A DNA stretch of 64,000 nucleotides, from positions 2,240,001-2,304,000 of the forward strand of contig OX638340.1 in the NCBI GenBank assembly GCA_951812955.1, given 5' to 3'. The notes beneath the pieces were generated by a model. That model ran no database searches and was not told where the DNA came from. It worked only from the letters and a program-made list of their open reading frames with translations. Shown here piece after piece: positions 4,335 through 55,718 of the stretch. Origin of the DNA: an uncultured Gemmatimonadota bacterium. GTDB taxonomy: Bacteria > JAAXHH01. Both the position numbers and the translations under genes were made by a program. Positions within the stretch are counted from its first letter, which is position 1. Each line of letters begins with the position of its first letter.

Positions 4335-4469
4335 AAACGACCACCCTTACCGCCATATGCCAATGGGATTGATCAGCACCATCTCAGTATTCAACACAAG
4401 TAGTTACGTATGCTGGAGCCAGCTCAACAGGCCAGAAAGTACACGTTCGGTTAATCGAACAGCCATGAA

Positions 4470-5483
4470 TCAGTCGTCATCGTCGTCATCTTTATCATCG
4501 TCGTCATCGTCATCGTCGTCATCGTCGTCATCATCATCGCCGTCGCCATCCCCGTCACCATCCCCGTCGCCATCGCCATCGCCATCGCCGTCACCATCGC
4601 CGTCGCCATCCCCGTCTCCATCACCATCACCGTCGCCATCTCCATCACCATCGCCGTCACCGTCGCCATCCCCATCGCCGTCCCCATCTCCATCGCCGTC
4701 GCCGTTACCTCCAGAGTTCCCACTGGGCGGTGGACTTAACTCTTCATCGCCGTCGCCATCCCCATCGCCGTCTCCATCACCACTGGGCGGTGGACTTAAC
4801 ACTTCGTCACCGTCGCCATCCCCGTCGCCATCCCCGTCTCCATCACCGTCGCCATCCCCGTCTCCATCACCGTCGCCATCGCCATCCCCATCGCCATCGC
4901 CATCACCGTCGCCATCGCCATCCCCATCGCCATCGCCGTCACCATCCCCATCACCATCACCGTCGCCATCACCGTCGCCATCCCCGTCCCCATCTCCGTC
5001 GCCATCCCCGGCCCCGTCCCCATCGCCATCGCCGTCACCATCGCCGTCGCCATCCCCGTCTCCATCACCGTCCCCATCACCGTCGCCATCCCCGTCCCCA
5101 TCACCATCACCGTCACCATCGCCGTCACCGTCACCATCGCCGTCCCCATCGCCACCATTTGAACTTGTGGTATTTGTTACCACACTTGCGTTGTCCTCGT
5201 TATTGCTACCTGCATCCCCGTTCCCATCCCCATTTCCGTTCCTATCTCCATTTCCGTCACCATCTCCATCTCCATCGCCATCTCCGTCCCCGTCGCCGTC
5301 CCCATCGCCGCTGCCACCCGGACTCTGAGCACTCCCCACCTGATTCGCACTCGTGGCGAATCCAGACCCTGATCCCATGGGGTTCAGATCGTTGTCCCCT
5401 CTGCAACCCAGGATCATGAGCAACGAAGCGACAGTCAGTTGCATTCTTCGCAACCATTGCATAATGGTTCGGCACAAGGCCAT
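4470..5483 (-). CDS. poly(Gly-Asp) repeat lipoprotein with poly-Asp C-terminal tail
   Basis: 337-aa ORF. The N-terminus MQWLRRMQLTVASLLMILGC has a basic n-region, a hydrophobic core and a lipobox-like ILGC. Blocks of (GD)n follow, broken by two SPPPSG linkers, and the protein ends in DDDDDDDDDDDDDDDKDDDDDD. Codon degeneracy supports this frame over the opposite-strand (SP)n frame (see findings). Alternative starts lie at Met8 or Met14. Confidence 0.65.
   Translation of the reverse strand: MALCRTIMQWLRRMQLTVASLLMILGCRGDNDLNPMGSGSGFATSANQVGSAQSPGGSGDGDGDGDGDGDGDGDGDGNGDRNGNGDGNGDAGSNNEDNASVVTNTTSSNGGDGDGDGDGDGDGDGDGDGDGDGDGDGDGDGDGDGDGDGDGDGDGDGAGDGDGDGDGDGDGDGDGDGDGDGDGDGDGDGDGDGDGDGDGDGDGDGDGDGDGDGDGDGDGDGDGDGDEVLSPPPSGDGDGDGDGDGDEELSPPPSGNSGGNGDGDGDGDGDGDGDGDGDGDGDGDGDGDGDGDGDGDGDGDGDGDGDGDGDGDGDGDDDDDDDDDDDDDDDKDDDDDD
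4473..5311. repeat. hexanucleotide coding repeat, plus-strand pattern (R)TC(N)CC = minus-strand GGN-GAY
   Basis: A period-6 repeat runs through almost the whole gene. A 20-nt element cactgggcggtggacttaac occurs twice, exactly 60 bp apart (4721-4740 and 4781-4800). Confidence 0.95.
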
Positions 5484-10380: not shown

Positions 10381-11136
10381 ATGACTCCCCACGAAAGATA
10401 CCTCTTCGACCTGCAGGGTTTTATCGAGGTCCCGGACGCGTTGGACGCCGGGCAGCTCGCAGAACTGAACGGCATACTGGACGAGAAGATCGACGGGGCC
10501 ATGGCACCCGGCGCCACCACCCACCGATTCGGCTTCACCCTGCTCGACTGGGGACCAACCTACCGGGAACTGATCGACAATCCGCGGATAGATCCTTATC
10601 TGGAACAACTGATCGGTCCGAAGTACCGGCTGGACCACGATTATGCCGATATCATCCGAAAAGGCGACGGTCCAATCGGCACGACCCTCCACGGAGGCGC
10701 CATCCCCTTCGACCCCCTCTACTCCTACACCTGCACCAACGAAGAGATCCGTTGCGGCCTGACTGTGGTCGCCTACTACCTGAAGGACGTAAATCCAGGC
10801 GACGGCGGATTCGGCTGCGTGCCCGGCAGCCATAAGAGCAACTTCCGGTTCCCGGACGAGTGGCGCAACCTCAAGACCGACCAGCCCTTCATCCGCGCCG
10901 TAACCGGCAAGGCCGGCACCGCCGTCATATTCACCGAGGCCCTGACCCACGGCACCATGCCCTGGCACGGTGACGAGCGCCGCACCCTCTTCTACAAGTA
11001 CTCGCCCAATTCGATATCCTGGTACGCGGAATACTATGACGCCGACCGGTACGAAGGTCTGACGGAACGGCAGCAGGAGATCCTTGAGGCACCGAACGCG
11101 CGGTATGGAGAACGGTCTAAGCGTGGGGTTGTGTAG
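10381..11136 (+). CDS. phytanoyl-CoA dioxygenase (PhyH) family protein
   Basis: 251-aa ORF with PhyH-like motifs (TLHGGAIPFD, GFGCVPGSHKSNFRFP, TEALTHGTMPW). Confidence 0.8.
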   Translation: MTPHERYLFDLQGFIEVPDALDAGQLAELNGILDEKIDGAMAPGATTHRFGFTLLDWGPTYRELIDNPRIDPYLEQLIGPKYRLDHDYADIIRKGDGPIGTTLHGGAIPFDPLYSYTCTNEEIRCGLTVVAYYLKDVNPGDGGFGCVPGSHKSNFRFPDEWRNLKTDQPFIRAVTGKAGTAVIFTEALTHGTMPWHGDERRTLFYKYSPNSISWYAEYYDADRYEGLTERQQEILEAPNARYGERSKRGVV

Positions 11137-11214
11137 GTGGGCTTTACGGATAGACCAGTTGATATTACGACCACATTTATTTGCTCATTGATTTACTGTA
11201 TCTCGAGGTTACAA

Positions 11215-11505
11215 ATGGACGTTAAGGAAGCCGTAAGTACGGCCATAAAACATATTGCAGATGTATACTCGGAAGAGGGAATCTCGCATATTGGATTAGA
11301 AGAGGTAGAATACGACGAGATTAACTCACAATGGAACGTGACCGTTGGATTTGCACGTAAGTGGGACTTCCCTACTCCGGTTCTTATCCCCGTATTACCT
11401 TCACCAAGACCAAACCAAAGAACCTACAAAATCGTAGTAATTCGTGATAGAGACAAGAAGGTCACCGCAATGAAGATAAGGGATTTAGCTACGTCGAATG
11501 AATAG
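11215..11505 (+). CDS. small hypothetical protein (candidate antitoxin/partner of the PIN-like gene)
   Basis: 96-aa ORF starting at the ATG at 11215, preceded by gaggtt. Its stop overlaps the next gene's start by 8 nt (ATGAATAG). No recognisable DNA-binding motif. Confidence 0.45.
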   Translation: MDVKEAVSTAIKHIADVYSEEGISHIGLEEVEYDEINSQWNVTVGFARKWDFPTPVLIPVLPSPRPNQRTYKIVVIRDRDKKVTAMKIRDLATSNE

Positions 11506-11968
11506 TGTGCTTATAGATACGAATCTACTTGTCCTTTTGGTTGTAGGATCTACCGATAGAGAGTTTATTAGTCGACATAAACGCACAAAATCGTTCATAC
11601 CCAGAGACTATGACGAACTGACACGTCTGTTGTCGGGATCTCGTGAGTTATGGGTTACTTCTCACTGTCTGGCAGAGACATCGAATCTTCTGAAGCAAAC
11701 CGATAAAACAAAAGCACAGATCTTGTTACATACTCTTGCGGCCTACTGCGATATTGCCCGCGAATCGCATATTCCCAAAGAGACGGTATTTGGATACGAG
11801 AACTACCGCAGACTTGGCGTCACCGACACCGGCTTCATATACTCATCCGAAACAGTCTCTCGATCTATAACAGTAGATTTCAACTTGTACATCGAACTGA
11901 GTAACCTTGGCAGAGAAGTGATAAACTTCCACCACATCCGTGCTTCGTATCTCCAGAATGTCGATTGA
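11498..11968 (+). CDS. PIN-like nuclease domain protein (candidate toxin)
   Basis: 156-aa ORF with an N-terminal VLIDTNLLVLL motif and spaced acidic residues (CLAETSN, GVTDTG, TVDFN), consistent with a PIN-fold active site. Confidence 0.5.
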   Translation: MNSVLIDTNLLVLLVVGSTDREFISRHKRTKSFIPRDYDELTRLLSGSRELWVTSHCLAETSNLLKQTDKTKAQILLHTLAAYCDIARESHIPKETVFGYENYRRLGVTDTGFIYSSETVSRSITVDFNLYIELSNLGREVINFHHIRASYLQNVD

Positions 11969-12089
11969 CACGACGATCACACAGTTTTGCACATTCCAGT
12001 GCTTAGTTTTTGGTCAAGACCAACCTGTAGTTAAAACCAACCAATGGCCCTGAAGAAATCCCAAAATTTGGTAAACACTGCCAGGAGAG

Positions 12090-13034
12090 ATGCCACCTAT
12101 GCTTGACGAATTGGTTGGATGTATCGATGAACTTAAAGATCGTATTTCCAAATACCGAAACTCACTAAATGAGAACGAAACTCGTACTCGAATGCAGTTA
12201 ATAGATCCGCTGCTTCGTGTGCTGGGCTGGGACGTCTCCGATCCACGGTACGTTATCCCAGAATTCAAGGTGTCCGATGGTTGGGCTGACTATGCCTTAT
12301 TGCGGGATGATGGTAAGCCTGCTGCTATGGTGGAAGCTAAAAAACTGGACGAACCGTTAAAGCCCGCACACCGTGCTCAGATGTTGAAATACGCAATTGA
12401 GTTGGGTATCCCATACACTGGTTTGACAGATGGAAATCACTGGGAGTTGTACAATGTTTTCCAACCGGTACCTATGGAGGACAAACAGATCTTGGATGTT
12501 ACTTTATTGGATTCCCACTCCCACGAAAGTGCACTAAAGTTACTGCTGCTCTGGAATCCAAATCTAGACGCCGGCAGCGCGGTGAAAGCAAATGAACCTG
12601 TTCTCGTCGACACTCAGAATGGCGGTTCGATTCCTCCAATAATCGTTCCGCCACCATCGAACTGGAAGGCACTTTCAGATTACGAACCACCAGCAGGAAC
12701 ACCCGCACCTAAGGCTATTAGGCTTTGGGATGACTCAGAAAGAGAAGTGCATCATTGGTATGAAATTCTCACCATAGTAGCCGAAAAGCTCTACAACGAA
12801 AATGTCCTTACATTGGAACATATACCGATTCAATGGGCTAAAAAGACCTATAGTATTCACTCTCAACCAGTACATCCGACCGGCAACAAGTTTGAAAATC
12901 ATAAAGAAATCGGTAACTCGGGATTGTTCGTAAACGTAAATTTAAATACCGGTCAAGTACGAAATAACACCCGGAATCTACTGAAGAAATACAACATTGG
13001 TACAGAGAAGGTTTACCTCAAGGTAGCCGATTAG
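12090..13034 (+). CDS. HsdR_N-type PD-(D/E)xK nuclease-domain protein with an unknown C-terminal domain
   Basis: The N-terminal 130 aa match the type I restriction enzyme R-subunit N-terminal pattern: NENETRTRMQLIDPLLRVLGWD ... WADYALLRDDGKPAAMVEAKKL ... TDGNHWELY. The C-terminal 150 aa are unassigned. Confidence 0.6.
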   Translation: MPPMLDELVGCIDELKDRISKYRNSLNENETRTRMQLIDPLLRVLGWDVSDPRYVIPEFKVSDGWADYALLRDDGKPAAMVEAKKLDEPLKPAHRAQMLKYAIELGIPYTGLTDGNHWELYNVFQPVPMEDKQILDVTLLDSHSHESALKLLLLWNPNLDAGSAVKANEPVLVDTQNGGSIPPIIVPPPSNWKALSDYEPPAGTPAPKAIRLWDDSEREVHHWYEILTIVAEKLYNENVLTLEHIPIQWAKKTYSIHSQPVHPTGNKFENHKEIGNSGLFVNVNLNTGQVRNNTRNLLKKYNIGTEKVYLKVAD

Positions 13035-13447
13035 GTAGTTTCGTTGACCTACCATGTTGAGGAGTGATATTTCTTGATCTCCACAGACAAGGTTAAGGGT
13101 AAACCACAGCATACCTCCTCACTATCAGGCACGGTTCCTCAGTACGTTGAAGCGATATCAGCAACTCGCTAGCTAGCAGCTACCTGCCCCGTCGCATGGA
13201 ATACTGGGTACAAACCGTCTTTCACTTTAGTGGCGATTTGTTCACGGCTCCGTTCGTCAAATACAATTGAGCCCACTAATTCCACCTGTTTACCTCGACA
13301 AACAAGAGTACAGATCAATCACTTCGTATGACAAAACTCATTCAACTTCTATTCGAAATTGGAATCGGTGACCACCACTCAACCTCTGAATCGTGTGAGA
13401 CTGATGAAGATTCGCTGGTACATGGAAAGGATAATGGAGTGTAATTG

Positions 13448-15622
13448 ATGAATTCAACGTCTGAAGAAACCACCACCCGTCCCTGTTGGTTTGTGGGCGC
13501 CAGTTATTCTGGTACGGGCGATCAAACTGAGCGATTTCTCACGGAAGGTATCTGGGAGAACGGCTTCGACAACGATCATCCGGCCGTCGCGATGACCAAA
13601 ACCATTCAGCCCGGAGACCCAATCGCGATCAAGTCCGCCTACGTTCGCAAACACGACCTACCTTTTGACAGTCGCAACCAGTTCGTATCCGTAATGGCGA
13701 TCAAGGCCATCGGGACGGTTTTAGAGAACATCGGTGATGGCCATACCGTTAAGGTTAAATGGAATAAGGAGGTAACTCCGCGAGAATGGTATTTCTTTAC
13801 TAACAGAGGTACAGTTTGGAAAGTATCGCCTGGTAGTGACTGGTATTCCGACGCCCTGATCGGATTCGCGTTCGAGAACAAGCCGCAGGATATCGATCGT
13901 TTCTTAAAAGTGCCGTATTGGAGGGAGAGGTATCGAGGAGACACGCTCAATGATCAACGGTTTGCGTGGACGAGGTTCTACGAGGCCTTTGCGGATAAGC
14001 TGCTCACATATAGGAACAAGCGCTTAGACTTAATAAATGGTATACAAGAAATAGCTGCCAGAGAGTATGCCATGTTGGTTCTGAGGGATCAGTTTCGGGA
14101 CGGTACGATCGGTCCACTCAAAGACATATGCCCATTTACTACCATCGGATTGTTCAATAAGGGAATAACGAATAGCAATCGAAGATCAATTGCATCAGAA
14201 CTCGCTGAATTGCTGGGAGTGTCAGAGTCGGTTCCGGATTCATTCGATGGAATACCTGTTCTCAACAATCAGAATTCCTGGTTTTTTTCGTATGAAAAAA
14301 ACCGACGACCGGAAGATATTGAAATCCTTTGGAATGTTTACTCCCGTGCAATTGCCTTCGCTGATTCAGATGATTCCGATGCGCGATCTGCTTTCGTCTC
14401 TGCTTACGACGACGCATCCGAGGTTTCTCACGTAGGTTGGAAACTTACATTTGGGCTGTATTGGATACGGCCTTGGGATTTCCCCGTCCTCGACACGAAT
14501 ACCCGGCGTTACCTGGACAAGAAACTCAATATTGAGATCGGACTAAATGGACCGAAAAGGGGATACTGTAGTGCGAACGACTACCTGACGGTCCATGACA
14601 CACTTGAAAAGAGGTTTCTGGAGGACACATATCCGGTTCGTTCTTTTCCAGAACTAGCACGCGAAGCCTGGTTGTATAAGCCCGGTGACCCGGATCCCCC
14701 GCCAGATAGCGGTCTGGATCCCCCGCCACCACCTGTCCCTTATTCACTCGATGATATCGTGAAAGACGGCTGTTTCATTGCCAGAGATAAACTCGAGTCG
14801 ATACTCAATCGACTCCGTACCAAGAAAAACCTCATTCTACAAGGCCCTCCAGGAACCGGGAAGACTTGGCTCGCCAGGAAGTTGGCCTACGCTTTGATCT
14901 GTGAGCGAGACGAAAGCAAGGTTCGTTCGGTACAGTTCCATCCCAATCTCTCTTACGAAGATTTCGTACGTGGTTGGCGGCCGGCGGGAGATGGTAAACT
15001 TACGCTCGTAGATGGCCCCTTCATCGCCATAAGGGACGAGGCCGAAAAAGATCCTACTACTCGATACGTCTTGGTCATCGAAGAGATCAACCGGGGCAAT
15101 CCCGCACAGATTTTCGGCGAGATGCTGACATTGTTGGAGACCGACAAGCGAACTCCAGACGAAGCCTTGGAATTGGTTTATTCAAAGACTCCGGATGAGC
15201 GATTCTTTGTTCCTAACAATCTGTTTGTCATCGGGACGATGAACATTGCTGATCGTTCACTGGCACTTGTAGACCTGGCATTACGCCGTAGATTTGCATT
15301 TATCGATCTGGAACCTACCCTTGGCAAGACTTGGCGAGACTGGGTCCATTCTAAAAACGGGATAGATAACGAGACTCTCACCGAAATTGAGCATCGTATA
15401 GATGATCTGAACCGGACGATCTCCAATGATTCCGGTCTTGGCTCGCAATTTCGCTTGGGGCACAGTTATGTGACGCCGCCGTTTGAACAGCCGATTAAAG
15501 ATGGGAGAAAGTGGTACAGGGAAGTCGTTGAAACGGAAATTGGACCACTACTCGACGAATACTGGTTCGAAGACCTCGCGAAATCTAGAAACGCAAAAAA
15601 GAAACTTTTGGATGGTTTTTAG
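13448..15622 (+). CDS. mcrB: McrB-family AAA+ GTPase with a roughly 450-aa non-canonical N-terminal region
   Basis: Walker A ILQGPPGTGKTWLARKLA, FHPNLSYEDFVRGWRP, VLVIEEINRGNPAQIFGEMLTLLE and FVIGTMNIADRSLALVDLALRRRFAFIDL. ATG at 13448, 8 nt after GGAG. A proline-rich linker (PGDPDPPPDSGLDPPPPPVP) precedes the AAA+ module. Confidence 0.85.
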   Translation: MNSTSEETTTRPCWFVGASYSGTGDQTERFLTEGIWENGFDNDHPAVAMTKTIQPGDPIAIKSAYVRKHDLPFDSRNQFVSVMAIKAIGTVLENIGDGHTVKVKWNKEVTPREWYFFTNRGTVWKVSPGSDWYSDALIGFAFENKPQDIDRFLKVPYWRERYRGDTLNDQRFAWTRFYEAFADKLLTYRNKRLDLINGIQEIAAREYAMLVLRDQFRDGTIGPLKDICPFTTIGLFNKGITNSNRRSIASELAELLGVSESVPDSFDGIPVLNNQNSWFFSYEKNRRPEDIEILWNVYSRAIAFADSDDSDARSAFVSAYDDASEVSHVGWKLTFGLYWIRPWDFPVLDTNTRRYLDKKLNIEIGLNGPKRGYCSANDYLTVHDTLEKRFLEDTYPVRSFPELAREAWLYKPGDPDPPPDSGLDPPPPPVPYSLDDIVKDGCFIARDKLESILNRLRTKKNLILQGPPGTGKTWLARKLAYALICERDESKVRSVQFHPNLSYEDFVRGWRPAGDGKLTLVDGPFIAIRDEAEKDPTTRYVLVIEEINRGNPAQIFGEMLTLLETDKRTPDEALELVYSKTPDERFFVPNNLFVIGTMNIADRSLALVDLALRRRFAFIDLEPTLGKTWRDWVHSKNGIDNETLTEIEHRIDDLNRTISNDSGLGSQFRLGHSYVTPPFEQPIKDGRKWYREVVETEIGPLLDEYWFEDLAKSRNAKKKLLDGF

Positions 15623-16743
15623 TGGTGAATGGCCCAGTAGTTAGTACGGCTGACGAGACGATCGAACAGGCCGGGTATATCGGTCGTATCCCTTTACGAA
15701 ATATCTGGCTGCTCATGCTTTACGCCTCTGACCTTTTCAGGCAACTTGATGCGTCTGAATACCGCTCCTTCGAAGATAATCCTGATGACCTGCCCGATCT
15801 GGTTGCCGAGATCCTATCACATGAAGTCGAACGTCGACTAAAGCGAAATCTGAGTTACGGCTACCAATACCGTAACGAAGTGCTCGGACGGGTTCGCGGA
15901 CGTATCGACCTTTTACAAACCGAAGCTCATCAACTACTGCAACGCGGCATGGTCGCCTGTCGATTCGACGAACTGACAATCGACACACCGAGGAACAGGT
16001 ACGTTCGATCCGCCCTCGAGATGATATCCAAATATGTTCGTCGAAAAGACCTGGCTCACCAGTGCAGGTCCCTCGTTGGAAGCCTTAGGCGACAGGGAGT
16101 CGTTGGAGAACGACCTGGGCGTGAGGTGACGTCAGTTGAGCGATACGGTAGACATGACGCTGTTGACCGCAAGATGGTGGATGCGGCTCGTCTTGCCTTC
16201 GAAATGGCCATTCCGACCGAGCAGACCGGTTCCAGGCACCTTCCACTACCGGACCGTGATATAAACTGGATTCGCAGACTCTATGAGAAAGGCGTTGCAG
16301 GATTCTATGATGTGGTACTTTCCAGAAGGGGATGGAATGTGTATCCGGGAACGATTCTCAGATGGCCCACGACAGTCAGAAGTCCGCGAATAGACGGGAT
16401 ACTACCCTCCATGCGGACCGATATTGTGTTGGATCATGTTGACGAAGGCCGACGGATCGTTATAGACACGAAATTCAACTCGGTTTTGTCGAGAGGTTGG
16501 TATCGAAATGAAGGGATACGAAGCGGATACATGTACCAGATCTATGCTTACCTTAGGTCGCAGGAAGAGAGTGGTGATCCGCTTGATTGTAATGCAGAGG
16601 GAATGTTTCTCCATCCGTCGGTTGGTGAGATGTTCAACGAATGGGTAGATATTCAGGGTCATCGGATCCACTTCAATACCGTTGATCTCGCAACCGATAC
16701 ACAGACCATCAGATCGCAGTTGTTGGATGCGGTGAAACCTTAA
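15622..16743 (+). CDS. mcrC: McrC-family nuclease subunit
   Basis: The GTG start overlaps the mcrB stop (TAGTG). C-terminal PD-(D/E)xK motif MRTDIVLDHVDEGRRIVIDTKF followed by YQIYAYL. Confidence 0.75.
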   Translation: MVNGPVVSTADETIEQAGYIGRIPLRNIWLLMLYASDLFRQLDASEYRSFEDNPDDLPDLVAEILSHEVERRLKRNLSYGYQYRNEVLGRVRGRIDLLQTEAHQLLQRGMVACRFDELTIDTPRNRYVRSALEMISKYVRRKDLAHQCRSLVGSLRRQGVVGERPGREVTSVERYGRHDAVDRKMVDAARLAFEMAIPTEQTGSRHLPLPDRDINWIRRLYEKGVAGFYDVVLSRRGWNVYPGTILRWPTTVRSPRIDGILPSMRTDIVLDHVDEGRRIVIDTKFNSVLSRGWYRNEGIRSGYMYQIYAYLRSQEESGDPLDCNAEGMFLHPSVGEMFNEWVDIQGHRIHFNTVDLATDTQTIRSQLLDAVKP

Positions 16744-16834
16744 ACTGACTTTGCTCTCGACATAGTCGTTCCACCAGCCCATTTCCCGCATCCGTTTGGT
16801 GTGTTCGGCAGCTTCGGTAATCTCAAGATTTGAC

Positions 16835-17761
16835 TCACCCCGCCTTCCTGAAGACCTCGAAACGACGGTCCAGCCGGTCCTGGTCCGGATGGTCACGGGT
16901 GCGTGAAGGCAGGTGCAGTCCCGATCCGTCCAGTTGCTTGAGGGCCTGGAGCATGGGACCGTCATCCTTGTCCAGCAGGCGGTCGGATACGTGCAGCCGG
17001 TAGTCGGGATCAATGCCGATCAGGTGGGCGTCAAAGGCCGCATGATGAATCTTGGACAGGGCCAAGCCGTTGGGTACGACGGGTTGTCCCAATGCCTCGT
17101 CGCCATCGGCAATGATGTGGGCGGCATCCAGTAACTGCGTTTCCGGTAGGCCGGTAATGGCACAGCGGCCGCGATAGGCGTGAAGGACAGCCTCGCGGAA
17201 CGTGGCTTGGTGGAGTCGTTCCTTGACCATGCGCAGGGCATACCGCCGCTCTACCGCGTTAATCGGAGCTTCCATCTCGGCCTGGTTGGGGTTCCCAAAG
17301 GCAAGCGTGGACTTGAGCGCGAATCCATCCCAATTGGAGATGAAGGTGGGAATGATCGCCTGATACCGGCTGGGAGACACACCGAGAAAGTAGATCACGG
17401 GAATCTGATTCTCCCAGGCAACCTTTAACCACTGGTTGTCTGCTGCTGCCGGGTCCTGTCCCATGAAGGCGTAGTCCACGGAATCGTTGCCCTCGAAAAT
17501 CTGGCTGTGGACCTGCTTTTGGTCGTCGTACCAGACTCGGCCGCCCGGTCTGGGGTACACGGTCCTGATCGAGAGAAGGTACCGCATCCGGCGCGGCTTG
17601 AATATGCCCCGCTGCGGATTGACAAGGGGGATCCTTTCGCCTTCGAATACGAACCCCGGCGCCAGTTCGTCCCTCGTAAGGTGGCCATGGGTTTCACTCA
17701 GCCGCCGCACGTGATCGAACGCGGCCATCCGCATCCTCGGATCTCGGTCGTCGACGTTCAT
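16835..17761 (-). CDS. HNH endonuclease (HNH_2-type) with an N-terminal putative DNA-reader domain
   Basis: C-terminal half has RGRCAITGLPETQLLDAAHIIADG ... NGLALSKIHHAAFDAHLIGIDPDY. The N-terminal 170 aa are unassigned (GIFKP, VWYDDQ, YAFMG motifs). Confidence 0.8.
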   Translation of the reverse strand: MNVDDRDPRMRMAAFDHVRRLSETHGHLTRDELAPGFVFEGERIPLVNPQRGIFKPRRMRYLLSIRTVYPRPGGRVWYDDQKQVHSQIFEGNDSVDYAFMGQDPAAADNQWLKVAWENQIPVIYFLGVSPSRYQAIIPTFISNWDGFALKSTLAFGNPNQAEMEAPINAVERRYALRMVKERLHQATFREAVLHAYRGRCAITGLPETQLLDAAHIIADGDEALGQPVVPNGLALSKIHHAAFDAHLIGIDPDYRLHVSDRLLDKDDGPMLQALKQLDGSGLHLPSRTRDHPDQDRLDRRFEVFRKAG

Positions 17762-17770
17762 CTCAGTCCT

Positions 17771-18733
17771 TTACCCCCGGTAAATCCTCTCATTGTGCCA
17801 GGATAGTACTTCGGTGGACGGCTGGTCCACCGCATTCCTGGGAACGACAATCTGTTTCCCGTGCAAAGAGTAGTAATCGCGCCCGTTCTCGAATTCCTCC
17901 CGGACCTGTCCGCTGACCTCGAAGTGCAATTCAGGGGTCACCGTTACGTATCCGGAATCGAACAGCCCGTGGATGTCGCGCCTTAGCAGCAGTCCGTTCC
18001 TGGCTTCGTGGATGCCCCCTTCGCTGTAGGGACGGATGTGCGCGGCATCAAGGGCCGGCAGCGTCCGTTCGCGGGTAACTGCGCAACGGCGGTCGTAAAG
18101 GTCGGTTACCAGGGCCCTGAAAGCACCTTGACCGAGACGCGGTTTGACCAGTTGCGGTTTGCCGTAAAGGGTTTGCCCGGCCAGGAGGCCTGAGGGTTCG
18201 GCCACGATGCCGGCAGGATTTGCAGATACACTGGTTGGCTGTCGGAATTCCAAACGGCCGTTGACTGCGTCCCACAATGCCCGTCCGTCTGAGTCACCGG
18301 TACTAAATGTCTTTAGTGACACGATGTTCGGCGACCATGTCGACGGCACATCGACAAACTCGGATGCCTCGAAGAAGAAGGGTTGGGTAAGGATCCGGCA
18401 GCCAATCTTGTAATCGCTCGGCTCACGTGGGTCAACATTACGGTAACGTGAGATACGATTTCGCATTTCCTGCAATGTCTCGGCACCGTTGGCTTCCCCG
18501 AATGCTTCCCATGCAAGGGAACAAGGCATCACATTGGCATAGGCAAAAACGCCGCCGCCAACGATTACGTTGTACGGCGCGTGTAGCTTGAAGAGGAACA
18601 GTTCACCGGGCTGAAGTGCCTTGAAGTTCGTGCCAGAAGGCGCCCAGAAGTTGACCTCCTCCAGGTGCGGCTTCTGCCGGAGAGTCTTGAACCAGTCCCC
18701 GTCGGTCACGGCAACGACCAGCTTGATGTCCAT
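17771..18733 (-). CDS. HNH endonuclease (HNH_2-type) with a different N-terminal domain
   Basis: RRCAVTRERTLPALDAAHIRPYSEGGIHEARNGLLLRRDIHGLFDSGYVTV. The N-terminus MDIKLVVAVTDGDWF ... EVNFWAPSG ... GELFLFKL is unrelated to that of the neighbouring HNH gene. Start chosen at the ATG at 18733. The gene ends 9 bp before the next HNH gene. Confidence 0.8.
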   Translation of the reverse strand: MDIKLVVAVTDGDWFKTLRQKPHLEEVNFWAPSGTNFKALQPGELFLFKLHAPYNVIVGGGVFAYANVMPCSLAWEAFGEANGAETLQEMRNRISRYRNVDPREPSDYKIGCRILTQPFFFEASEFVDVPSTWSPNIVSLKTFSTGDSDGRALWDAVNGRLEFRQPTSVSANPAGIVAEPSGLLAGQTLYGKPQLVKPRLGQGAFRALVTDLYDRRCAVTRERTLPALDAAHIRPYSEGGIHEARNGLLLRRDIHGLFDSGYVTVTPELHFEVSGQVREEFENGRDYYSLHGKQIVVPRNAVDQPSTEVLSWHNERIYRG

Positions 18734-19076
18734 AGCGCGAATTCCGGTAAACTTTGGTGCTATTGGGATACAGGCAGATCCGATCAACGGACAACCGCAA
18801 CCGTGCGTCTCGCTGATCGAGCCTTATCATCTAAAATAAAAGACGGCAACCATGGCAGGTCAAGTGCCGCCTGTGCGACCCGGTTTTTGACGTTTGGAAC
18901 ACAGAACGAGTGCTTCCAGATTGCCTTGACCAAATGTACCTGTTAGTTTACTGAACGTTGGTACACTTGATCTCATAAGTTATCAGGAGATTACGAGCGA
19001 GTAGTGAAAGGAACGATTCATATCTTATGTTGTGTAATTTAAATCATATATCGGAAATAGTACATAGGGGAGTTGT

Positions 19077-19274
19077 GTGGTGAATAGTAACTCAAAAGAT
19101 AATAACGAACGGCGATCGCCGATAAAAACCGCCAAACATGACAACTCGAGTGACGAAAACAATCCCCCAGCCAACCTGGCGGAAGCGATACGCGCCCGTT
19201 TTGCACCGTTGGGTGGGATAGAACTGGATCTTCCGCCACGCGAACCCATGCGCGAACCGCCCGAATTCAAATAA
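19077..19274 (+). pseudogene. relic of a VapB/StbC-type antitoxin (C-terminal half only)
   Basis: The tail NLAEAIRARFAPLGGIELDLPPREPMREPPEF is the conserved C-terminus of ribbon-helix-helix VapB/StbC antitoxins. The N-terminal RHH part is replaced by AT-rich low-complexity sequence, and no vapC follows. Confidence 0.45.
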
Positions 19275-19359
19275 TGAGAACGCATTAGCGCTGACTGGAA
19301 ACTGTCCCATATGAACCCGGCAATTCCGCACTGGTAATCCAACCAACAAAGGACACCCC

Positions 19360-20754
19360 ATGCCCCCGATCGACATCGGCTCACGCCGCGAGCTCTTTGT
19401 AGACTCATTTCTGATCGACACCCTCACGGACGCCCACCAACATCTTCACGAACCCGTTCTAAAGGAGACGGTATTCCGCGTAGAGGAACCTCTGGAGAAC
19501 GCCTGTACGGGTTGCTACAACCTGGTACAGACAGACGGCAAAGTCCTGGTGTATTACCGCGGCTATCACCCCACGGGCAAACACGAGGATCTGCCCGAGG
19601 GTTGGGCGGAAACGCAGACGACAAACCTGCTGGTCAGCGATGACGGCATCCACTTCGAACGGCCGAACCTGGGCCTGGTGGAAGCGGAAGGTTCGAAGGA
19701 CAACAACATCCTCGTCCGGGGCCGCGAGGCACATAACTTCTGCGTCTTCCTGGACGGCAATCCGGAAGTGGCGCCCGATCAGCGTTTCAAGGCCGTCGGT
19801 GGAGAAGGCAGGGACAGTCTCTTCGGTTTCACTTCATCCGACGGATTGACCTGGAAACCGGTGCAGGACGGTCCCCTCGCGATCACGGGCGCCTTCGACT
19901 CGGTGAACGTGCCCCTTTGGGACGACTACGCGGGTTGCTACCGCCTCTTCAGCCGGTACTTCGAACAGACGGGGGAAGACGGCGTCGGGGTCCGGGCAAT
20001 TCAGAGCTGCACCTCGGAGGATTTCATCCACTGGACCACGCCCGAACATCACGTGTACGGCGAAGGCGTCCCGTTCGAGCACTTCTACACCAACGCCACC
20101 ACGCCATGCCCTGGCGCGGAACACATCCTGCTGTCCTTTCCCATGCGGTTCGTGCCGGAACGGACGAAGGACATCAAGGGCATGGATTACCCCGGGGGCG
20201 GCGTGTCCGACGCTATATTCATGTCGAGTCGGGACGGCGTCCACTGGGACCGGAGTTTCATGGACGCCTGGCTGCGCCCGGGCCTGGAAAAGCGCAACTG
20301 GACGCACCGCAACCAGACGCCGGCCGCGGGAATCGTTCCGACAGCCCCGGACGAATGGTCGATGTACGTCGCCGAGCATTACGGATGGGACACCAACGGC
20401 GTGAGGCGGGTGACCGTCCGTCCCCACGGTTTCGCCTCCGTCCGGGCAGGCTACTACGGTGGCGAACTGTTTACGAAACCCCTGACCTTCACCGGATCGA
20501 CGCTGTATATCAACTACTCGGCGTCCGCCGTGGGCGCCGTGTCCGTGGAGATTCAGGATACGGAAGGTCGAGCCTTGGAGGGATTTGCGGCAAACGACAT
20601 GGATCCCCTGTTCGGCGACGACCTGGACGCCCCGATTACGTGGAAGGGCTCCGACGGTCTGAATGGCCTGAACCGGCTGAACGGTGTGCCGGTCCGCCTG
20701 CGGTTCATCCTGAAGGACGCCGATCTCTTCTCGATCCGTTTCGGAGATTCCTGA
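19360..20754 (+). CDS. uncharacterised protein, probably a beta-propeller glycoside-hydrolase-like fold
   Basis: 464-aa ORF. The N-terminus IDIGSRRELFVDSFLID and repeated W/D-rich strands resemble uncharacterised GH32/43-superfamily-like proteins. The function call is weak. Confidence 0.4.
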   Translation: MPPIDIGSRRELFVDSFLIDTLTDAHQHLHEPVLKETVFRVEEPLENACTGCYNLVQTDGKVLVYYRGYHPTGKHEDLPEGWAETQTTNLLVSDDGIHFERPNLGLVEAEGSKDNNILVRGREAHNFCVFLDGNPEVAPDQRFKAVGGEGRDSLFGFTSSDGLTWKPVQDGPLAITGAFDSVNVPLWDDYAGCYRLFSRYFEQTGEDGVGVRAIQSCTSEDFIHWTTPEHHVYGEGVPFEHFYTNATTPCPGAEHILLSFPMRFVPERTKDIKGMDYPGGGVSDAIFMSSRDGVHWDRSFMDAWLRPGLEKRNWTHRNQTPAAGIVPTAPDEWSMYVAEHYGWDTNGVRRVTVRPHGFASVRAGYYGGELFTKPLTFTGSTLYINYSASAVGAVSVEIQDTEGRALEGFAANDMDPLFGDDLDAPITWKGSDGLNGLNRLNGVPVRLRFILKDADLFSIRFGDS

Positions 20755-35166: not shown

Positions 35167-35490
35167 CAAAAATAACGAAACCCCGTATTTACAGGCCTTT
35201 AGGGGTTGCCGCCGACTTGGCGGCATTGACCAGCGGAGATCACCACAGATGCAATTCATGGTACGTGCGGCCGGCCGATTCAAAGGATTATGACGCAAGA
35301 CGTTCGCGCAATTACCCTTTTTCAGCGGCCATTGTTCACACACCGGTCACACTTATTTCGTTATATTTGAATGGAATGGGCGTTTTTTTAGATACCTTCC
35401 TATTGCCTACGTATCCGGTTGACTTCATGCGGGCTTGGATCCGTCGATCGTAACAGCAGTACGTTAATCACTTCTACGGGGATAGCGATC

Positions 35491-36003
35491 ATGAACGGCA
35501 CATTGAGTGAAGGAAGCAGGCGGGAGTTGACGGACAGGTTCGTTTGTGCGGTGCAGCACCTGGGCCGATTGATGCACAACGGACGGCTTGGCGAACTGAA
35601 GAAACTCGACCTGAACGCCCACCAGGCGGATACCCTGATGTTGCTGTATCATCACGGGCCCACCCGGATGGGGACCCTGGCGAACTACCTGGGGAGTAAA
35701 CTGCCGCACATGTCCCTCATTGTAGGTCACCTGGTCAACAAGGGTTACATTCAACGAAGTTCGGATCCAAAGGACCGGAGAGTGGTTATCTGCGAATTCA
35801 CTGCAAAAGGCAGGAAGGCTGCGCAACAGATCATACAACATACGAGGATACTCGTGAACGAGGTGGCCGAAAAGTGGGATTTCGAACAGTTCGAATCCGT
35901 GGTCGAGTCGCTGGAATCGTTTTGGGACCCAGAATCGGGAGTTCCCGGATCAGCCGTTTCTGGGCAGCGCCAGTCCAGAGACAGGTTGTTGGAAGAGATG
36001 TAA
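35491..36003 (+). CDS. MarR-family transcriptional regulator
   Basis: Winged-helix core LDLNAHQADTLMLLYHHGPTRMGTLANYL ... DPKDRRVVICEFTAKG. ATG at 35491. Confidence 0.8.
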   Translation: MNGTLSEGSRRELTDRFVCAVQHLGRLMHNGRLGELKKLDLNAHQADTLMLLYHHGPTRMGTLANYLGSKLPHMSLIVGHLVNKGYIQRSSDPKDRRVVICEFTAKGRKAAQQIIQHTRILVNEVAEKWDFEQFESVVESLESFWDPESGVPGSAVSGQRQSRDRLLEEM

Positions 36004-36170
36004 TCCCAGATATGGCAGGCCAGTTCAATGCAGGGTGAAGCAGCCGGCGATCCGACTGTTGCCATTGCGCCCGAAGCCGGATCTGCGTGACCGGCGTCAG
36101 TTGGAACTACTTCGGCAATAAATAGTCCGCCAGAACATCGAGGTCGATTGGGGCGTCCCGCCCTAATTCT

Positions 36171-36222
36171 CCGACCCGCCCCTACATCCGACCCGCCCTT
36201 ACCACCGACCCGCCCACACCCC
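36171..36222. repeat. 17-bp x3 tandem repeat (ccgacccgcc core)
   Basis: ccgacccgcccctacat / ccgacccgcccttacca / ccgacccgcccacaccc, in the spacer between the MarR paralogs. Confidence 0.8.
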
Positions 36223-36283
36223 CGGCCCAACCGGGAGAGTACAGATTCCTACCATATCCTTGGCCATCCGGCACTGCTCGGCT

Positions 36284-36404
36284 GGCCGTCCATTTCCGCC
36301 GCCGAGACGGCTGTCCGCTTTCGCCCCAGTCGGCCGTCCATTTCCGCCGCCGAGACGGCTGTCCGCTTTCGCTCCAGTCGGCCGTCCGCTTTCGCCCCAG
36401 TCGG
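36284..36404. repeat. 48-bp x2.5 tandem repeat
   Basis: ggccgtccatttccgccgccgagacggctgtccgctttcgccccagtc (36284-36331), a copy with one mismatch (36332-36379), and a truncated third unit (36380-36404). Each full unit contains the inverted repeat GCCGTC ... GACGGC. Confidence 0.95.
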
Positions 36405-36698
36405 ATCGCGGAACGGCACGCCTGCGGCAATAAAGTTTAATTTGACAAATGTTATTTTACTGGATAGTTTCCATACAGTTTTGTTCGAACTTTGTTTGGA
36501 ACTTCGGTTTATCTCCAGGGCATTCCCCGCCCCGGAGCATTCAACGTGAATTTACACACGTAAAACCGGTTCGATTCAAGGGACTACAACAAGCGGTTTC
36601 CAGACAGGGCCGAGCGTCCCGTGGCATTACCAGAAACACGGAATCGCGGGGTCCCGCGGAAAGCGTGCCGATCCAACCACTCTCATGGTTCTGGGTGA

Positions 36699-37181
36699 AT
36701 GAACGTGGAGAACGAATTCAGGCAGGACATCTCGAACCGCTACTTGAAGTCCGTGGAAGAAATCAACCGGATCATGTACAGCGGCCGTCTGCATGAGTGG
36801 CAGGGGATGGATCTATCGATTTCCCAGTTCAATACCCTTGTCATGCTGAAGCAGATGGGACCGATGCGCATGGGTATGATTTCCTACTATCTGAAGAACA
36901 CGCTTGCCGCCACCACATCGATCGTAGACCGTCTGGAGAACAAGGACCTGGTGATTCGGACCAAGGATCCCGAAGACAGAAGAGTGGTCATCTGCGAATT
37001 GACGGAACACGGGCAGAAAGCAACGGAGCGATTCTGGCGAGTCGCGCGGGAGGCGGCCTTGAGGGTAGCCAGCAAGTGGGACCTGAAGCAGTTCGAATCA
37101 GTGGTCGAGGCGCTGGAACTGGTCTTGCAGACCCATAAGGAGATCGTTCAGTCCGGCACATCTACAAAGCCTGCCGAATAA
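36699..37181 (+). CDS. MarR-family transcriptional regulator (paralog of 35491-36003)
   Basis: MDLSISQFNTLVMLKQMGPMRMGMISYYL ... DPEDRRVVICELTEHG ... KWDLKQFESVVEALE parallels the first paralog (KWDFEQFESVVESLE). Confidence 0.8.
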   Translation: MNVENEFRQDISNRYLKSVEEINRIMYSGRLHEWQGMDLSISQFNTLVMLKQMGPMRMGMISYYLKNTLAATTSIVDRLENKDLVIRTKDPEDRRVVICELTEHGQKATERFWRVAREAALRVASKWDLKQFESVVEALELVLQTHKEIVQSGTSTKPAE

Positions 37182-53220: not shown

Positions 53221-53266
53221 TCCTGGACACGGTTATTCATACCTTCTGGACACGGTTATTCATACC
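53221..53266. repeat. 23-bp x2 tandem duplication spanning the permease stop codon
   Basis: tcctggacacggttattcatacc (53221-53243) / ttctggacacggttattcatacc (53244-53266). The minus-strand stop (tta at 53256-53258) lies in the second copy. Confidence 0.9.
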
Positions 53267-55718
53267 TCAATGCATGCACAGGGTCGGACAGCGTGGTCTT
53301 CAACGTATGATACATCACAGTCAGCAGAGCGATCATCGTGACGAAAGCCCCTACGAGACCGAAGATGCCAAGATTGACCACGGCGTGATACGCAAACTCC
53401 TGAATCCACGTCATCATCATCGTGTACGCAATTGGCCAGGCTATGGCGTTTGCGATGAGTGACAAAATGACCACCTCGCGGCATTGCAGGGTTAACAGAC
53501 TCAGAAAAGTCGCTCCCAGTGCCTTTCGTATCCCCACTTCCCTGATGCGTTTTCTTGTCGTGTATGAAACAAGGCCGGTCAGGCCCAGGCAAGCGATAAG
53601 AACCGCTATCAGCGAAAAACTGCCGAGTATCGTAATCAGTCTGTTCTCTTCGTTATAGAACTGTGCGGTGTCTTCATCCAGGAAGTAGTAGGCAAATGCG
53701 AAGTCCGGATTGATGTCCCTCCATGTCTCCTCGATGAATGCCAGGGTTTCCTCGTAGTTCTCCGAACCGAGTTTAATGGACACATTCCAGAATTCATCTG
53801 ATGCGAGCATGGCGAGCGGTTCGATTTCCGACCTTAAGCTATTGTAATGAAAGTCATTTACTACCCCGATTACCGTTCTGAAGGATTCAGCGGCCTCCCC
53901 GGACGCTGACATGCCGCGGGGCGCAATCCACCTTATCCTTTCTCCCACGGCTCCTTCAGCAGAATCCCAGCCGGCTTTCGCGGCCGCGCGCTCGTTGAGA
54001 ATGATTGAACGCCTGTCTTCCGCCGCCAGGGTACTCGAGAAAAAACGTCCTGCTTTCATGGTCATGCCAAGCGTACGGAGGTAGTCGGCGTCGACCCAAA
54101 AGGTCCTTACCTGGATTTGCCCTCCGTCGTCTGCGGTTATCGGCCGTATGGTCGTTTGTAGCGGCGGTCTTCCCGGGGGCATGTCGGACCCGGAAACACT
54201 GAGTACGCTATGGTGTTCAAGCAGTCTTTCTTTCAGGGCCGAGAATGTATTTACGACAGGAGTGAATGTGAGCGGAATGACGACTATCCGTTGGTTGTCA
54301 TAGCCCAGGTCCTTGTCCCGGATGTAATCTATTTGCTGATACACGATGCAGGTAGCGATTATCAGAACAGTCGATATGGTGAATTGAAACACGACCAGCG
54401 TTTGACGCAGCGACGCCTTTTTTATCCCTCTGCTAATCCCGCTTTTAAGTACGTCAATCGGTTTGTAAGATGAAAGCAGGAGGGCGGGGTAAATGCCGGA
54501 GACAAGTCCAACCATCAGCGAAGTGCCGAGTAACGCCGGTATCAACTCGGAGATATCATAACTGATCTGGTCTGCTGACGCTGTCATCATACTGCTGAAC
54601 ACGGGAAGCAGGAACTCGATCATTCCCCAAGCGATAGGCAAGGCGATGATGGCGATAAACACAGACTCTCCGATATGCTGTGCCATCAGTTGGGCTCGTT
54701 GCGCTCCCAGCGTTTTACGCAGTCCTATTTCACCTGCACGGCCGCTCGAGTACGCGGTAGCGAGATTGATGAAGTTCACACAGGCAATCATCAGTATCAG
54801 TACCGCTACGGCGCCGTAGAGGAAAACAGTTGAAATACTGCCGTTTGGTTCCAACTCACCCATGCGACTAGAGTAAAGATGAATGGATGTCAGGGGTTGC
54901 AGAGTGAGGTCAAAAGTAATTTGCTCACTTTCAAACCGGGGATTCACGTGCCTGGAAACAAACTCGGGAAACTTGGTGGTCAATTCACCGGGGATGGAAG
55001 CCGGTGTGAGCAACAAGTAAACATGGCTGCGGTTCCAAAGATCCCAGGTGTACCGCTCATCCGGCCTAAAACTGACCGATGATTCACGTTGATGTGCGAG
55101 AAAATCATAATTCATGTGCGAGTTTGGTGGCAGGTCTCGCATTACCCCCACGATACGATAGTCCCAGGTATCTTCGGCGCGAATCGTTTTACCTATGGGA
55201 TCGGCATCCTTGAAGTACTTCAGCGCCATGGATTCGGACAAAACGACCGTAAAGGCGTCTTTCAGCGCGGTTTCGGGGTTTCCTTGAACGAATTCGACCG
55301 AAAAAACATCGAAAAACGTGGAGTCCGTGTGATAGAACCCCTTTTCATAGAATCGATTTTCGCCGTGGGCTATCATGTAGGAAGAACCCGGTTTCAGAAC
55401 GGTCACCGACGCTTGAATTTCCGGGAACTCCTCTTTCAGGACGCTGACCAGGGGGGTCAAGGCAGCAGCGGTTTCCGTGGTGCTGTTCGGACTGTGTATG
55501 TCCATCGCCACGCGGTATATTCTGTCTGAATTCACATTGAACCGATCGAAACTCAGTTCGAACCGCATGTAGAGCATAATCATCACGAAACATGTTACGC
55601 CAATTGTAAGACCCACTACATTGATGGATACATAAGCCTTATTGTTCCACAGGTGGCGAACAGTAGTCCTTAAAATGTTACTGATCAGCGACGCAGGAAG
55701 AAACCCGGTAGCGGCCAT
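53256..55718 (-). CDS. MacB/FtsX-type ABC transporter permease (two FtsX domains)
   Basis: N-terminus ILRTTVRHLWNNKAYVSINVVGLTIG, a large periplasmic domain, and two 4-TM FtsX modules (RKTLGAQRAQL and RKALGATFLSL loops). Start chosen at the ATG at 55718. No adjacent ATPase gene. Confidence 0.85.
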   Translation of the reverse strand: MAATGFLPASLISNILRTTVRHLWNNKAYVSINVVGLTIGVTCFVMIMLYMRFELSFDRFNVNSDRIYRVAMDIHSPNSTTETAAALTPLVSVLKEEFPEIQASVTVLKPGSSYMIAHGENRFYEKGFYHTDSTFFDVFSVEFVQGNPETALKDAFTVVLSESMALKYFKDADPIGKTIRAEDTWDYRIVGVMRDLPPNSHMNYDFLAHQRESSVSFRPDERYTWDLWNRSHVYLLLTPASIPGELTTKFPEFVSRHVNPRFESEQITFDLTLQPLTSIHLYSSRMGELEPNGSISTVFLYGAVAVLILMIACVNFINLATAYSSGRAGEIGLRKTLGAQRAQLMAQHIGESVFIAIIALPIAWGMIEFLLPVFSSMMTASADQISYDISELIPALLGTSLMVGLVSGIYPALLLSSYKPIDVLKSGISRGIKKASLRQTLVVFQFTISTVLIIATCIVYQQIDYIRDKDLGYDNQRIVVIPLTFTPVVNTFSALKERLLEHHSVLSVSGSDMPPGRPPLQTTIRPITADDGGQIQVRTFWVDADYLRTLGMTMKAGRFFSSTLAAEDRRSIILNERAAAKAGWDSAEGAVGERIRWIAPRGMSASGEAAESFRTVIGVVNDFHYNSLRSEIEPLAMLASDEFWNVSIKLGSENYEETLAFIEETWRDINPDFAFAYYFLDEDTAQFYNEENRLITILGSFSLIAVLIACLGLTGLVSYTTRKRIREVGIRKALGATFLSLLTLQCREVVILSLIANAIAWPIAYTMMMTWIQEFAYHAVVNLGIFGLVGAFVTMIALLTVMYHTLKTTLSDPVHALRYE

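Follow-up and report, generated by a model that had tools for sequence, protein, structure and literature searches.

A probable chromosomal defence hotspot carrying type IV-like nucleases in an uncultured Gemmatimonadota bacterium

We analysed 64,000 nucleotides of DNA (below, the window) from an uncultured Gemmatimonadota bacterium (GenBank assembly GCA_951812955.1, contig OX638340.1, positions 2,240,001 to 2,304,000), concentrating on an AT-biased island of 8.2 kb that lies between two conserved genes. The left flank is a gene coding for a PhyH-family dioxygenase (10381..11136, plus strand; Pfam PhyH, 5.2e-9), whose product is 85–96% identical in 21 related species represented by metagenome-assembled genomes (MAGs). 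The right flank (19360..20754, plus strand) codes for a 464-aa protein that had no match in a Pfam scan and is 80–86% identical in relatives (tblastn). Both genes are outside the island. Between them the window carries five modules: the gene pair small96 and PIN156, the solitary nuclease gene HsdRN314, mcrBC, the nuclease genes HNH_B and HNH_A, and a decayed vapB. A preliminary description of this DNA had listed the same genes, and every item of that list was found.

The composition of the DNA changes abruptly at the left limit. In 1-kb windows, the GC content is 0.60–0.64 up to 11 kb and drops from 0.60 to 0.45 directly past the PhyH stop codon (11136). It is 0.45 at 11–13.5 kb, 0.48–0.51 over mcrBC (13.5–16 kb), 0.56–0.59 over the HNH genes (16.5–18.5 kb) and 0.51 at 18.5–19.5 kb, and then 0.61 again. 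GC content at third codon positions (GC3) is 0.78–0.84 in the flanking genes, 0.43–0.46 in small96 (0.43), PIN156 and HsdRN314, 0.51–0.52 in mcrB and mcrC, 0.67 in HNH_B and 0.74 in HNH_A. In the k-mer analysis that had been proposed, tetranucleotide usage departed from that of the remaining window by z = 5–6 at 11–13.5 kb, z = 3–4 over mcrB and z of about 0 over the HNH genes. Comparison with the 21 related species by blastn placed the left breakpoint of DNA homology at 11105–11146. In loci that lack the vapB relic and have the right flank within the fetched DNA, homology returns at 19339–19349, just 5′ of the ATG (19360) of the conserved gene. The composition switch was thus where the preliminary description had put it, and its wording that the insertion lies exactly after the PhyH stop codon holds within ~10 nt in most relatives and within ~35 nt in all of them.

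No methyltransferase, integrase or transposase domain was found among the eight main island genes in profile-library scans, there is no tRNA gene in the whole window, and flanking direct repeats were limited to chance-level 14–19-mers; these absences, too, agree with the preliminary description. The hallmarks of an integrative mobile element (an integrase, a tRNA or att site, flanking direct repeats) were therefore not found at the island. Counts of promoters and terminators were at or below shuffled expectation.

The leftmost module consists of two genes on the plus strand, small96 (11215..11505), which codes for a 96-aa putative antitoxin, and PIN156 (11498..11968), which codes for a putative RNase toxin; the 3′ end of small96 overlaps the start of PIN156 by 8 nt. 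Neither product was recognised by the four profile libraries: small96 had no match in Pfam, PADLOC, NCBIfam or PHROGs and nothing usable at Pfam E ≤ 5, and the Pfam PIN model gave no match to PIN156. About 179 homologues of PIN156 were retrieved, of about 154 aa and without a Pfam domain, and alignment of 50 sequences revealed that D7, E60, D110, D127 and N143 are invariant. When an AlphaFold2 (AF2) model of PIN156 (pLDDT 94.7) was compared with the PDB by Foldseek, the top matches were M. tuberculosis VapBC (5x3t), VapC20, archaeal PAE0151 and Shigella VapC, which points to a VapC-like PIN fold.

Homologues of small96 (89–98 aa, M1 conserved, 44–47% identity) are located directly 5′ of PIN156 homologues in the unrelated loci L032 and L033–35; identities reach 84% once L021, a locus from one of the related species, is included. 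In L032 (5712–6465), the cassette is inserted between the genes of the small and large subunits of carbamoyl-phosphate synthase in a pyrimidine operon, which is an unusual site for a toxin–antitoxin pair. In L033–35, it is found beside HigBA and HicAB pairs. Being dispersed in unrelated genomes, the two genes behave as a type II toxin–antitoxin cassette, one that is free-standing and not specific to defence islands. Among the loci related to the window, the cassette is present only in L021 and in two metagenome contigs, L036/L037, with relics in L017 and L020. In L017 (10853–13721), a small96 homologue (85% identity) is followed directly by an intact hsdM gene in place of the PIN gene. Homology of L017 to the window stops at 11490, at the start of PIN156, so that a breakpoint of recombination lies where the two genes of the cassette meet.

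As in VapBC systems, there is a PIN fold in which four acidic residues are invariant, a small upstream gene that overlaps the PIN gene in the window and adjoins it elsewhere, and a two-gene cassette dispersed in unrelated genomes, including positions beside HigBA and HicAB. The differences are that the two proteins match neither Pfam PIN nor known antitoxin families and that small96 has no ribbon–helix–helix (RHH), AbrB, helix–turn–helix or Phd DNA-binding domain recognisable in Pfam, NCBIfam, PADLOC or PHROGs. From the predicted fold and the pairing of the genes, small96 and PIN156 are presumably a VapBC-like cassette with toxin–antitoxin activity.

The next gene, HsdRN314 (12090..13034, plus strand), codes for a 314-aa protein whose N-terminal 130 aa match the Pfam HSDR_N family of PD-(D/E)xK nucleases marginally above the cut-off (25.3 bits, cut-off 25.1). 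Its profile matches only the N-terminus of the HsdR structure 3h1t. The nuclease domain is followed by a Pro-rich linker and a conserved C-terminal domain of ~120 aa, for which no match was obtained (nothing usable for the C-terminal half in Pfam at E ≤ 5). The protein has at least 1,298 homologues with a constant length of ~316 aa. The best 120 of them are 50–97% identical over 89–99% of the length, and those from unrelated organisms are 50–58% identical; D67, E82-A-K84, Q97 and T113-G115-W118-E119 are invariant. The possibility that HsdRN314 is a remnant of a truncated HsdR was considered and rejected because of the constant length, the conserved C-terminal domain and the size of the family.

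HsdRN314 thus shares with type I HsdR subunits the N-terminal PD-(D/E)xK domain, whose motif is intact, and differs from them by its length, by its distinct C-terminal domain and by forming a separate family. Since it also has no superfamily 2 helicase/translocase motor, and since the island contains no hsdM or hsdS, it is not an HsdR. We infer that it may be a nuclease that works on its own and carries a sensor domain, a function suggested only by its class and its neighbours. It is absent from the 21 other hotspot loci and present in L036/L037. In foreign contexts (L038, L039, L130, L131) it is solitary, and its neighbours are PIN/HicB toxin–antitoxin genes, M78/DUF4411 pairs, a gene for a 1,469-aa N6-methyltransferase-AAA protein, or nothing suggestive. 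No relatives were found in viral contigs.

Between PIN156 and HsdRN314 there is a relic of a type I hsdM leader/upstream region (11960..12063, plus strand; 81% identity to L036 3061–3164). In L036, this leader runs into a 550-nt 5′ fragment of hsdM, which shares 85.6% identity with the intact gene found in L017. The segment 11988–12064 of the window is 80% identical to a sequence of L015 that spans the hsdM start (12196).

The mcrB gene (13445..15622, plus strand; likely start ATG 13448) codes for an AAA+ GTPase (AAA_5, 4e-27), and the start of mcrC (15622..16743, plus strand) overlaps its stop codon by 1 nt. Residues 426–722 of McrB match EcoK McrB in the PDB at 5e-74 and carry Walker A (G467PPGTGKT), Walker B (I545EEINR) and NxxD (M599NIAD) motifs. 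Residues 1–431 had no match in Pfam (E ≤ 5) or to PDB sequences, and the whole protein scores below the cut-off of the NCBIfam McrB model (257.8, cut-off 637). The McrB homologue in L036 has precomputed annotations PF28527 DUF8425 and McrB_lid. McrC is a full-length match to the NCBIfam McrC equivalog (395.5 bits, cut-off 338), matches Pfam McrBC at 2.2e-22 and contains the motif D267...I281-D-T-K.

The locus resembles EcoK mcrBC in the GTPase motor with all three motifs, in the McrC equivalog and in the order of the two overlapping genes. It differs in that the alignment begins only at EcoK residue 161: the DUF3578/ADAM reader of 5-methylcytosine (5mC) is unmatched, and an N-terminal region of ~430 aa is found instead. 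Judged by these matches, the island protein combines a motor of the McrB family with a specificity region different from that of EcoK; variable specificity domains of McrB are well known (PMC11090510). Genes of this type were found only in L002 and L020, i.e., in two of the 12 species with both flanks recovered (see below), and on the contigs L036/L037.

On the minus strand there follow two genes of HNH endonucleases, HNH_B (17771..18733; HNH_2, 3.9e-12) and, downstream of it, HNH_A (16835..17761; HNH_2, 5.2e-11), separated by a 9-nt spacer. HNH_B is a 320-aa protein, its real start being M18 of a 338-aa open reading frame (ORF). That the two nucleases have different N-terminal domains, as the preliminary description stated, agrees with the result of hhalign, in which only the HNH domains align.

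An AF2 model of HNH_A built from a 43-sequence alignment (pLDDT 95.7) matched TagI (6ghs) best in Foldseek (6.9e-7, 290 columns, both domains), followed by VcaM4I and ScoMcrA. Its N-terminal domain matched SRA domains of SUVH5, SUVH6 and KRYPTONITE with probabilities of 0.75–0.98 (0.91–0.98 for most SUVH5/6 entries), whereas its sequence gave nothing usable in Pfam at E ≤ 5. The HNH residues AAH213, N231 and H239/H240 are present, with profile matches to the HNH domains of VcaM4I and TagI. The predicted structure thus gives HNH_A the two-domain architecture of the SRA-HNH enzymes TagI and ScoA3IV (PMC6212794, PMC6765204), to which it is also similar in the intact HNH motif and in the lack of an adjacent methyltransferase gene. 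Unlike them, it is encoded directly downstream of a second, different HNH enzyme, and sequence identity to them is only ~16%.

For HNH_B, the closest PDB match is the HNH part of VcaM4I (6yex; 4.5e-7 with a single sequence, 6.6e-9 with a profile). The HNH domain, size and two-domain layout are similar to those of this EVE-HNH enzyme (PMC7897488); its N-terminal ~170 aa had no match in Pfam (E ≤ 5) or among PDB sequences (E ≤ 10), and neither an EVE/PUA nor an SRA domain was detected there by these searches. A link between HNH_B and ScoA3V (Sco5330) was considered and set aside; in PMC6765204, the ScoA3V group is described as restricted to Actinomycetales. The HNH_B family has at least 7,395 members, typically of 306 aa, with 64–67% identity across phyla. 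In 22 sequences, including those from Aromatoleum, Pyruvatibacter and Pirellulaceae, mean column identity is 79%. To judge from these alignments, the family is conserved to a degree that is unusual among restriction-type genes. Only four full-length relatives of HNH_B were found in viral contigs.

The HNH pair is present in six of the 12 resolved relatives (L002, L006, L009, L013, L014 and L020). L020, which is the closest species and has a PhyH with 96% identity, has kept HNH_A intact but of HNH_B just the last 138 aa (19604–20017); the segment matching window positions 18192–18831 is deleted. The same gene order, with spacers of mostly 9–28 nt, was also found in a Pyruvatibacter genome and in another MAG. 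In a metagenome survey of loci found with the HNH_B alignment, the tandem was present in 14 of 80 loci; in 47 loci the sequence continued for 1 kb or more on the downstream side, and these contained eight full pairs and one fragment. The paired HNH_A copies are 57–73% identical to HNH_A of the window. In most metagenome loci HNH_B is solitary. It appears from this distribution that the tandem is a recurrent mobile two-gene cassette also found in other phyla, and that HNH_B occurs more often alone. In other phyla, unannotated proteins of 248–272 aa without a Pfam match flank the tandem (L040 4192–4998 and 6861–7679; L042 4070–4816) and may be further members of the cassette. When the main screen publication on PUA/SRA-HNH enzymes (PMC6765204) was searched by terms, no such tandem came up.

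The last module, at the right edge, is a pseudogene of vapB, coding for a FitA-like RHH antitoxin, without a vapC (ORF 19077..19274, plus strand). The preliminary description had noted a VapB relic here, and tblastn with the intact VapB of L006 confirmed it: the alignment covers window positions 19089–19250 and reveals a 12-aa deletion in the RHH domain and a degenerate N-terminus. The window copy has no RHH match in Pfam. The vapB genes of L005, L016 and L020 also lack vapC and carry a deletion at the same position and of nearly the same extent (~12 aa). In the window (19180–19274) and in the relics of L002, L005, L013, L016, L020 and L021, the C-terminal ~30 aa (NLAEAIRARFAPLGG[V/I]EL[E/D]LPPR..) are far better conserved than the remainder. 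Their conservation despite the loss of vapC may be explained by a constraint from the leader or promoter of the downstream gene, or by a small peptide that survives.

To compare the same slot in relatives, one genome per species was scanned with the PhyH protein, which retrieved 21 MAGs of uncultured bacteria. These are labelled inconsistently as to phylum (Latescibacterota, Gemmatimonadetes, Poribacteria and plain “bacterium”). Cargo was compared by tblastn with window genes, by clustering and by Pfam scans, and both flanks were recovered in 12 species. As can be seen from tblastn, the two genes upstream, the PhyH gene and the downstream 464-aa gene are conserved across loci and the interior varies. 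Among the 12 species, the gap between the flanks is 2.6–9.9 kb and the cargo differs. The shortest, L013 (2.6 kb), carries only the HNH pair and the vapB relic. L006 and L009 have the HNH pair with an intact vapBC, and L002 has a DUF1828 gene, mcrBC, the HNH pair and the vapB relic. L020 contains a type II restriction–modification (RM) system, mcrBC, HNH_A, the truncated HNH_B and the vapB relic, and L021 an AddA-like gene, the small96/PIN156 cassette and the vapB relic. Other loci carry unrelated cargo of 4.6 to >10 kb. The metagenome contigs L036/L037, from a second organism, carry the same overall island as the window at 75–83% nucleotide identity.

In the slots of relatives, type I hsdM/hsdS genes with an AAA_13 gene were found in L004, L008, L015, L017 and L018, an Eco57I-like methyltransferase with a BsuBI/PstI restriction endonuclease in L012, L019 and L020, a type IIG enzyme with a PLD-HEAT protein in L001, intact FitA-RHH/PIN VapBC pairs in L006–L009, and IS256-family transposases in L005 and L018. 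In the type I RM loci, an 862-aa AAA_13/SMC_N protein is encoded after hsdS (L017 15223–17811; L018 17977–20571), and no hsdR was identified in L017 and L018 among the scanned ORFs of the fetched 10 kb. The IS256 (Mutator-family) transposases are located at 13672–17388 in L018 and 13956–15191 in L005; the two copies in L018 flank or interrupt hsdS, now divided between ORFs of 303 aa and 193 aa. The L003 hotspot also carries a MacB-like gene (803 aa, GC 0.48).

In eight relatives, the slot contains AddB/AddA genes at genomic GC content. They code for a PDDEXK_1 protein of ~885 aa and a UvrD-helicase/PD-(D/E)xK protein of ~1,150 aa (L003 10982–17127; also L007, L012, L016, L019 and L021). In L011 (11811–16969) and L014 (11144–16671), they are broken up, with several ORFs in their place, and seem to be in decay. 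No AddB/AddA genes were found in the entire window.

The gene order of the island is thus not conserved as core genome in all relatives. Since gap size and cargo differ between shared flanks, the slot appears as a recombination hotspot with defence-rich, species-specific cargo. As in known defence islands and hotspots, the flanks are conserved, the cargo is variable and dominated by RM, type IV, toxin–antitoxin and transposase genes, and the composition is atypical. This hotspot differs from them in that the slot is marked by no integrase, tRNA gene or repeat, in that its hosts are uncultured MAGs with inconsistent phylum labels, and in that recombination genes (addAB) occupy the slot of eight relatives.

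The preliminary description had read the GC mosaic as stepwise accretion. Composition and nested subsets of cargo (the HNH pair in six of 12 species, mcrBC in two of 12, the left genes scattered) are in agreement with accretion. The mosaic does not make the HNH pair a late addition: the pair is compositionally native and, together with the vapB relic, is the most widely shared cargo. Accretion was, moreover, accompanied by erosion, which is evident from the vapB pseudogene, the hsdM leader relic and the truncation of HNH_B in L020. Stepwise gain and erosion are therefore supported by both composition and synteny. Gradients of GC3 and tetranucleotide distance, together with nested presence and absence, indicate in which order the cargo arrived: the oldest residents would be the HNH pair and vapB, mcrBC would have followed, and the most recent gains would be the PIN cassette and HsdRN314, with a type I RM system lost between the older and the recent gains. 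The simplest mechanism would be homologous recombination via the conserved flanks and between cassettes, possibly with occasional help from IS256 elements like those of the relatives.

Taken together, these data make it probable that the region is a chromosomal defence hotspot, i.e., one intergenic slot, bordered by two conserved genes of metabolic type, in which recombination brings in, exchanges and erodes independent defence or addiction modules, rather than a single mobile element. Annotation and predicted structure also support the proposal that a cluster of nucleases without a methyltransferase is a type IV-like defence island. Its type IV flavour is borne out for McrBC by the McrC equivalog and by the McrB motor with its NxxD motif, and for HNH_A by the TagI-like fold. 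On this evidence, McrBC and HNH_A are assigned to families that cut modified DNA. The island would comprise an addiction or abortive-infection module and up to four nucleases. In such a scheme, the PIN156 nuclease would be held in check by the upstream small96, and McrBC would be a GTP-driven type IV restriction complex with a reader unlike the 5mC reader of E. coli. HNH_B and HNH_A would be co-transcribed; the SRA domain of HNH_A would flip out bases of the 5mC or 5-hydroxymethylcytosine (5hmC) type, as TagI does, and HNH_B would use a different reader. The nucleases would cut incoming DNA with modified bases, and the host DNA would be free of those marks; the absence of a methyltransferase in the island fits the cutting of modified DNA.

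The 8.2 kb could instead have been acquired horizontally as one mobile element, such as a genomic island, an integrative element or a prophage remnant. The sharp composition switch at the PhyH stop codon and the presence of the overall island in L036/L037 would be expected in that case. An integrase, a transposase, a tRNA gene and a flanking repeat are all absent, three composition classes are found inside the island, the HNH pair being native, and relatives carry nested subsets (the HNH pair with the vapB relic in L013, mcrBC with the HNH pair in L002, small96/PIN156 without the other nuclease genes in L021), so that we regard acquisition as a single element as very improbable. The same low probability applies to the idea that small96, PIN156 and HsdRN314 make up one new three-gene defence system. 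The three genes are adjacent, have the lowest GC3 and recur jointly in L036/L037, and the longest contig of PIN156 relatives and that of HsdRN314 relatives are both 2,628 nt, i.e., may be one and the same contig. Against this, an hsdM fragment and 1.2 kb part the PIN gene from HsdRN314 in L036/L037, and the window retains the hsdM leader at this place; L021 carries small96/PIN156 without HsdRN314; in unrelated genomes, the PIN cassette (L032–35) and HsdRN314 (L038, L039, L130, L131) occur apart; and the trend in nine foreign loci is that HsdRN314 is not enriched beside homologues of small96/PIN156. The suggestion that 11215–13034 houses a new defence module was rejected in the form of a single three-gene system, and the small96/PIN156 cassette, which occurs in a pyrimidine operon and beside HigBA/HicAB, is not specific to defence islands.

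Another alternative is that selfish addiction or housekeeping, rather than anti-phage defence, is the main role of the modules: the PIN pair would stabilise the locus, the nucleases would be selfish or serve repair or recombination, and their clustering would reflect a permissive recombination hotspot. It accounts for the PIN cassette in non-defence contexts, for how very strongly HNH_B and HsdRN314 are conserved between phyla, for AddAB in the same slot of eight relatives and for HNH_B being alone in most metagenome loci. For McrBC and SRA-HNH enzymes, however, restriction has been established by experiment in other bacteria (PMC6212794, PMC6765204, PMC11090510), other occupants of the slot are overwhelmingly RM systems, and the neighbours of HsdRN314 elsewhere are mostly toxin–antitoxin- or RM-like. 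We therefore consider this explanation unlikely, though less so than the two above.

Several observations weigh against a type IV-rich defence hotspot. The activities of all modules are those suggested by homology or predicted fold. The N-terminal readers of McrB and HNH_B are unmatched in Pfam and among PDB sequences, and for these two proteins the notion that they are aimed at modified DNA is conjectural. PADLOC profiles gave no match to McrC, small96 or PIN156, and the small96/PIN156 cassette is found in contexts such as the pyrimidine operon. HsdRN314 is strongly conserved and solitary, and one of its five foreign contexts is devoid of defence-like neighbours. The native composition of the HNH pair and the 64–67% identity of the family across phyla are not typical of defence genes, which evolve fast, and would also suit genes that serve in housekeeping or repair. 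With these points taken into account, a type IV-rich defence hotspot is the reading supported by our analysis, at the level of what homology and predicted folds suggest.

A further and more tentative proposal concerns novelty. The HNH_B/HNH_A tandem might be a distinct, horizontally mobile two-gene cassette of type IV restriction, in which the two paralogous HNH proteins act jointly, e.g., as a hetero-oligomer that combines the SRA reader of 5mC/5hmC with a new reader, and the ~316-aa HsdR_N family and the small96/PIN156 family might represent new modules of phage defence or abortive infection that current defence catalogues lack. We consider this a possibility worth stating, with odds clearly against it.

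Other features of the window were recorded outside the island. At 4469–5310 there is a long imperfect tandem repeat with a 6/12/60-nt period (consensus CATCGCCGTCAC, ~54 copies), a GC skew of -0.47 and a tetranucleotide z of ~5; its minus strand probably codes for a repeat rich in Asp and Gly. Two genes of MarR-family regulators are located at 35419–37181 in a second patch of lower GC content (0.52–0.57). A gene coding for an 867-aa MacB/FtsX-type permease (53256–55859, minus strand; GC 0.51) lies in a 3-kb low-GC patch.

As a defence hotspot with known types of systems, the locus is fairly ordinary in kind and leaves the general picture of bacterial immunity unchanged. It offers a natural time series of the build-up and decay of a defence island at one fixed slot, with no visible mobile-element machinery, and it draws attention to three abundant and little-studied families: a PIN cassette invisible to Pfam, a solitary HsdR_N-type nuclease and an HNH tandem. 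The base modifications sensed by the readers of these proteins, once identified, could make them tools for epigenetic DNA analysis, and the same readers could show which modifications of phage DNA matter in the habitat of these bacteria.

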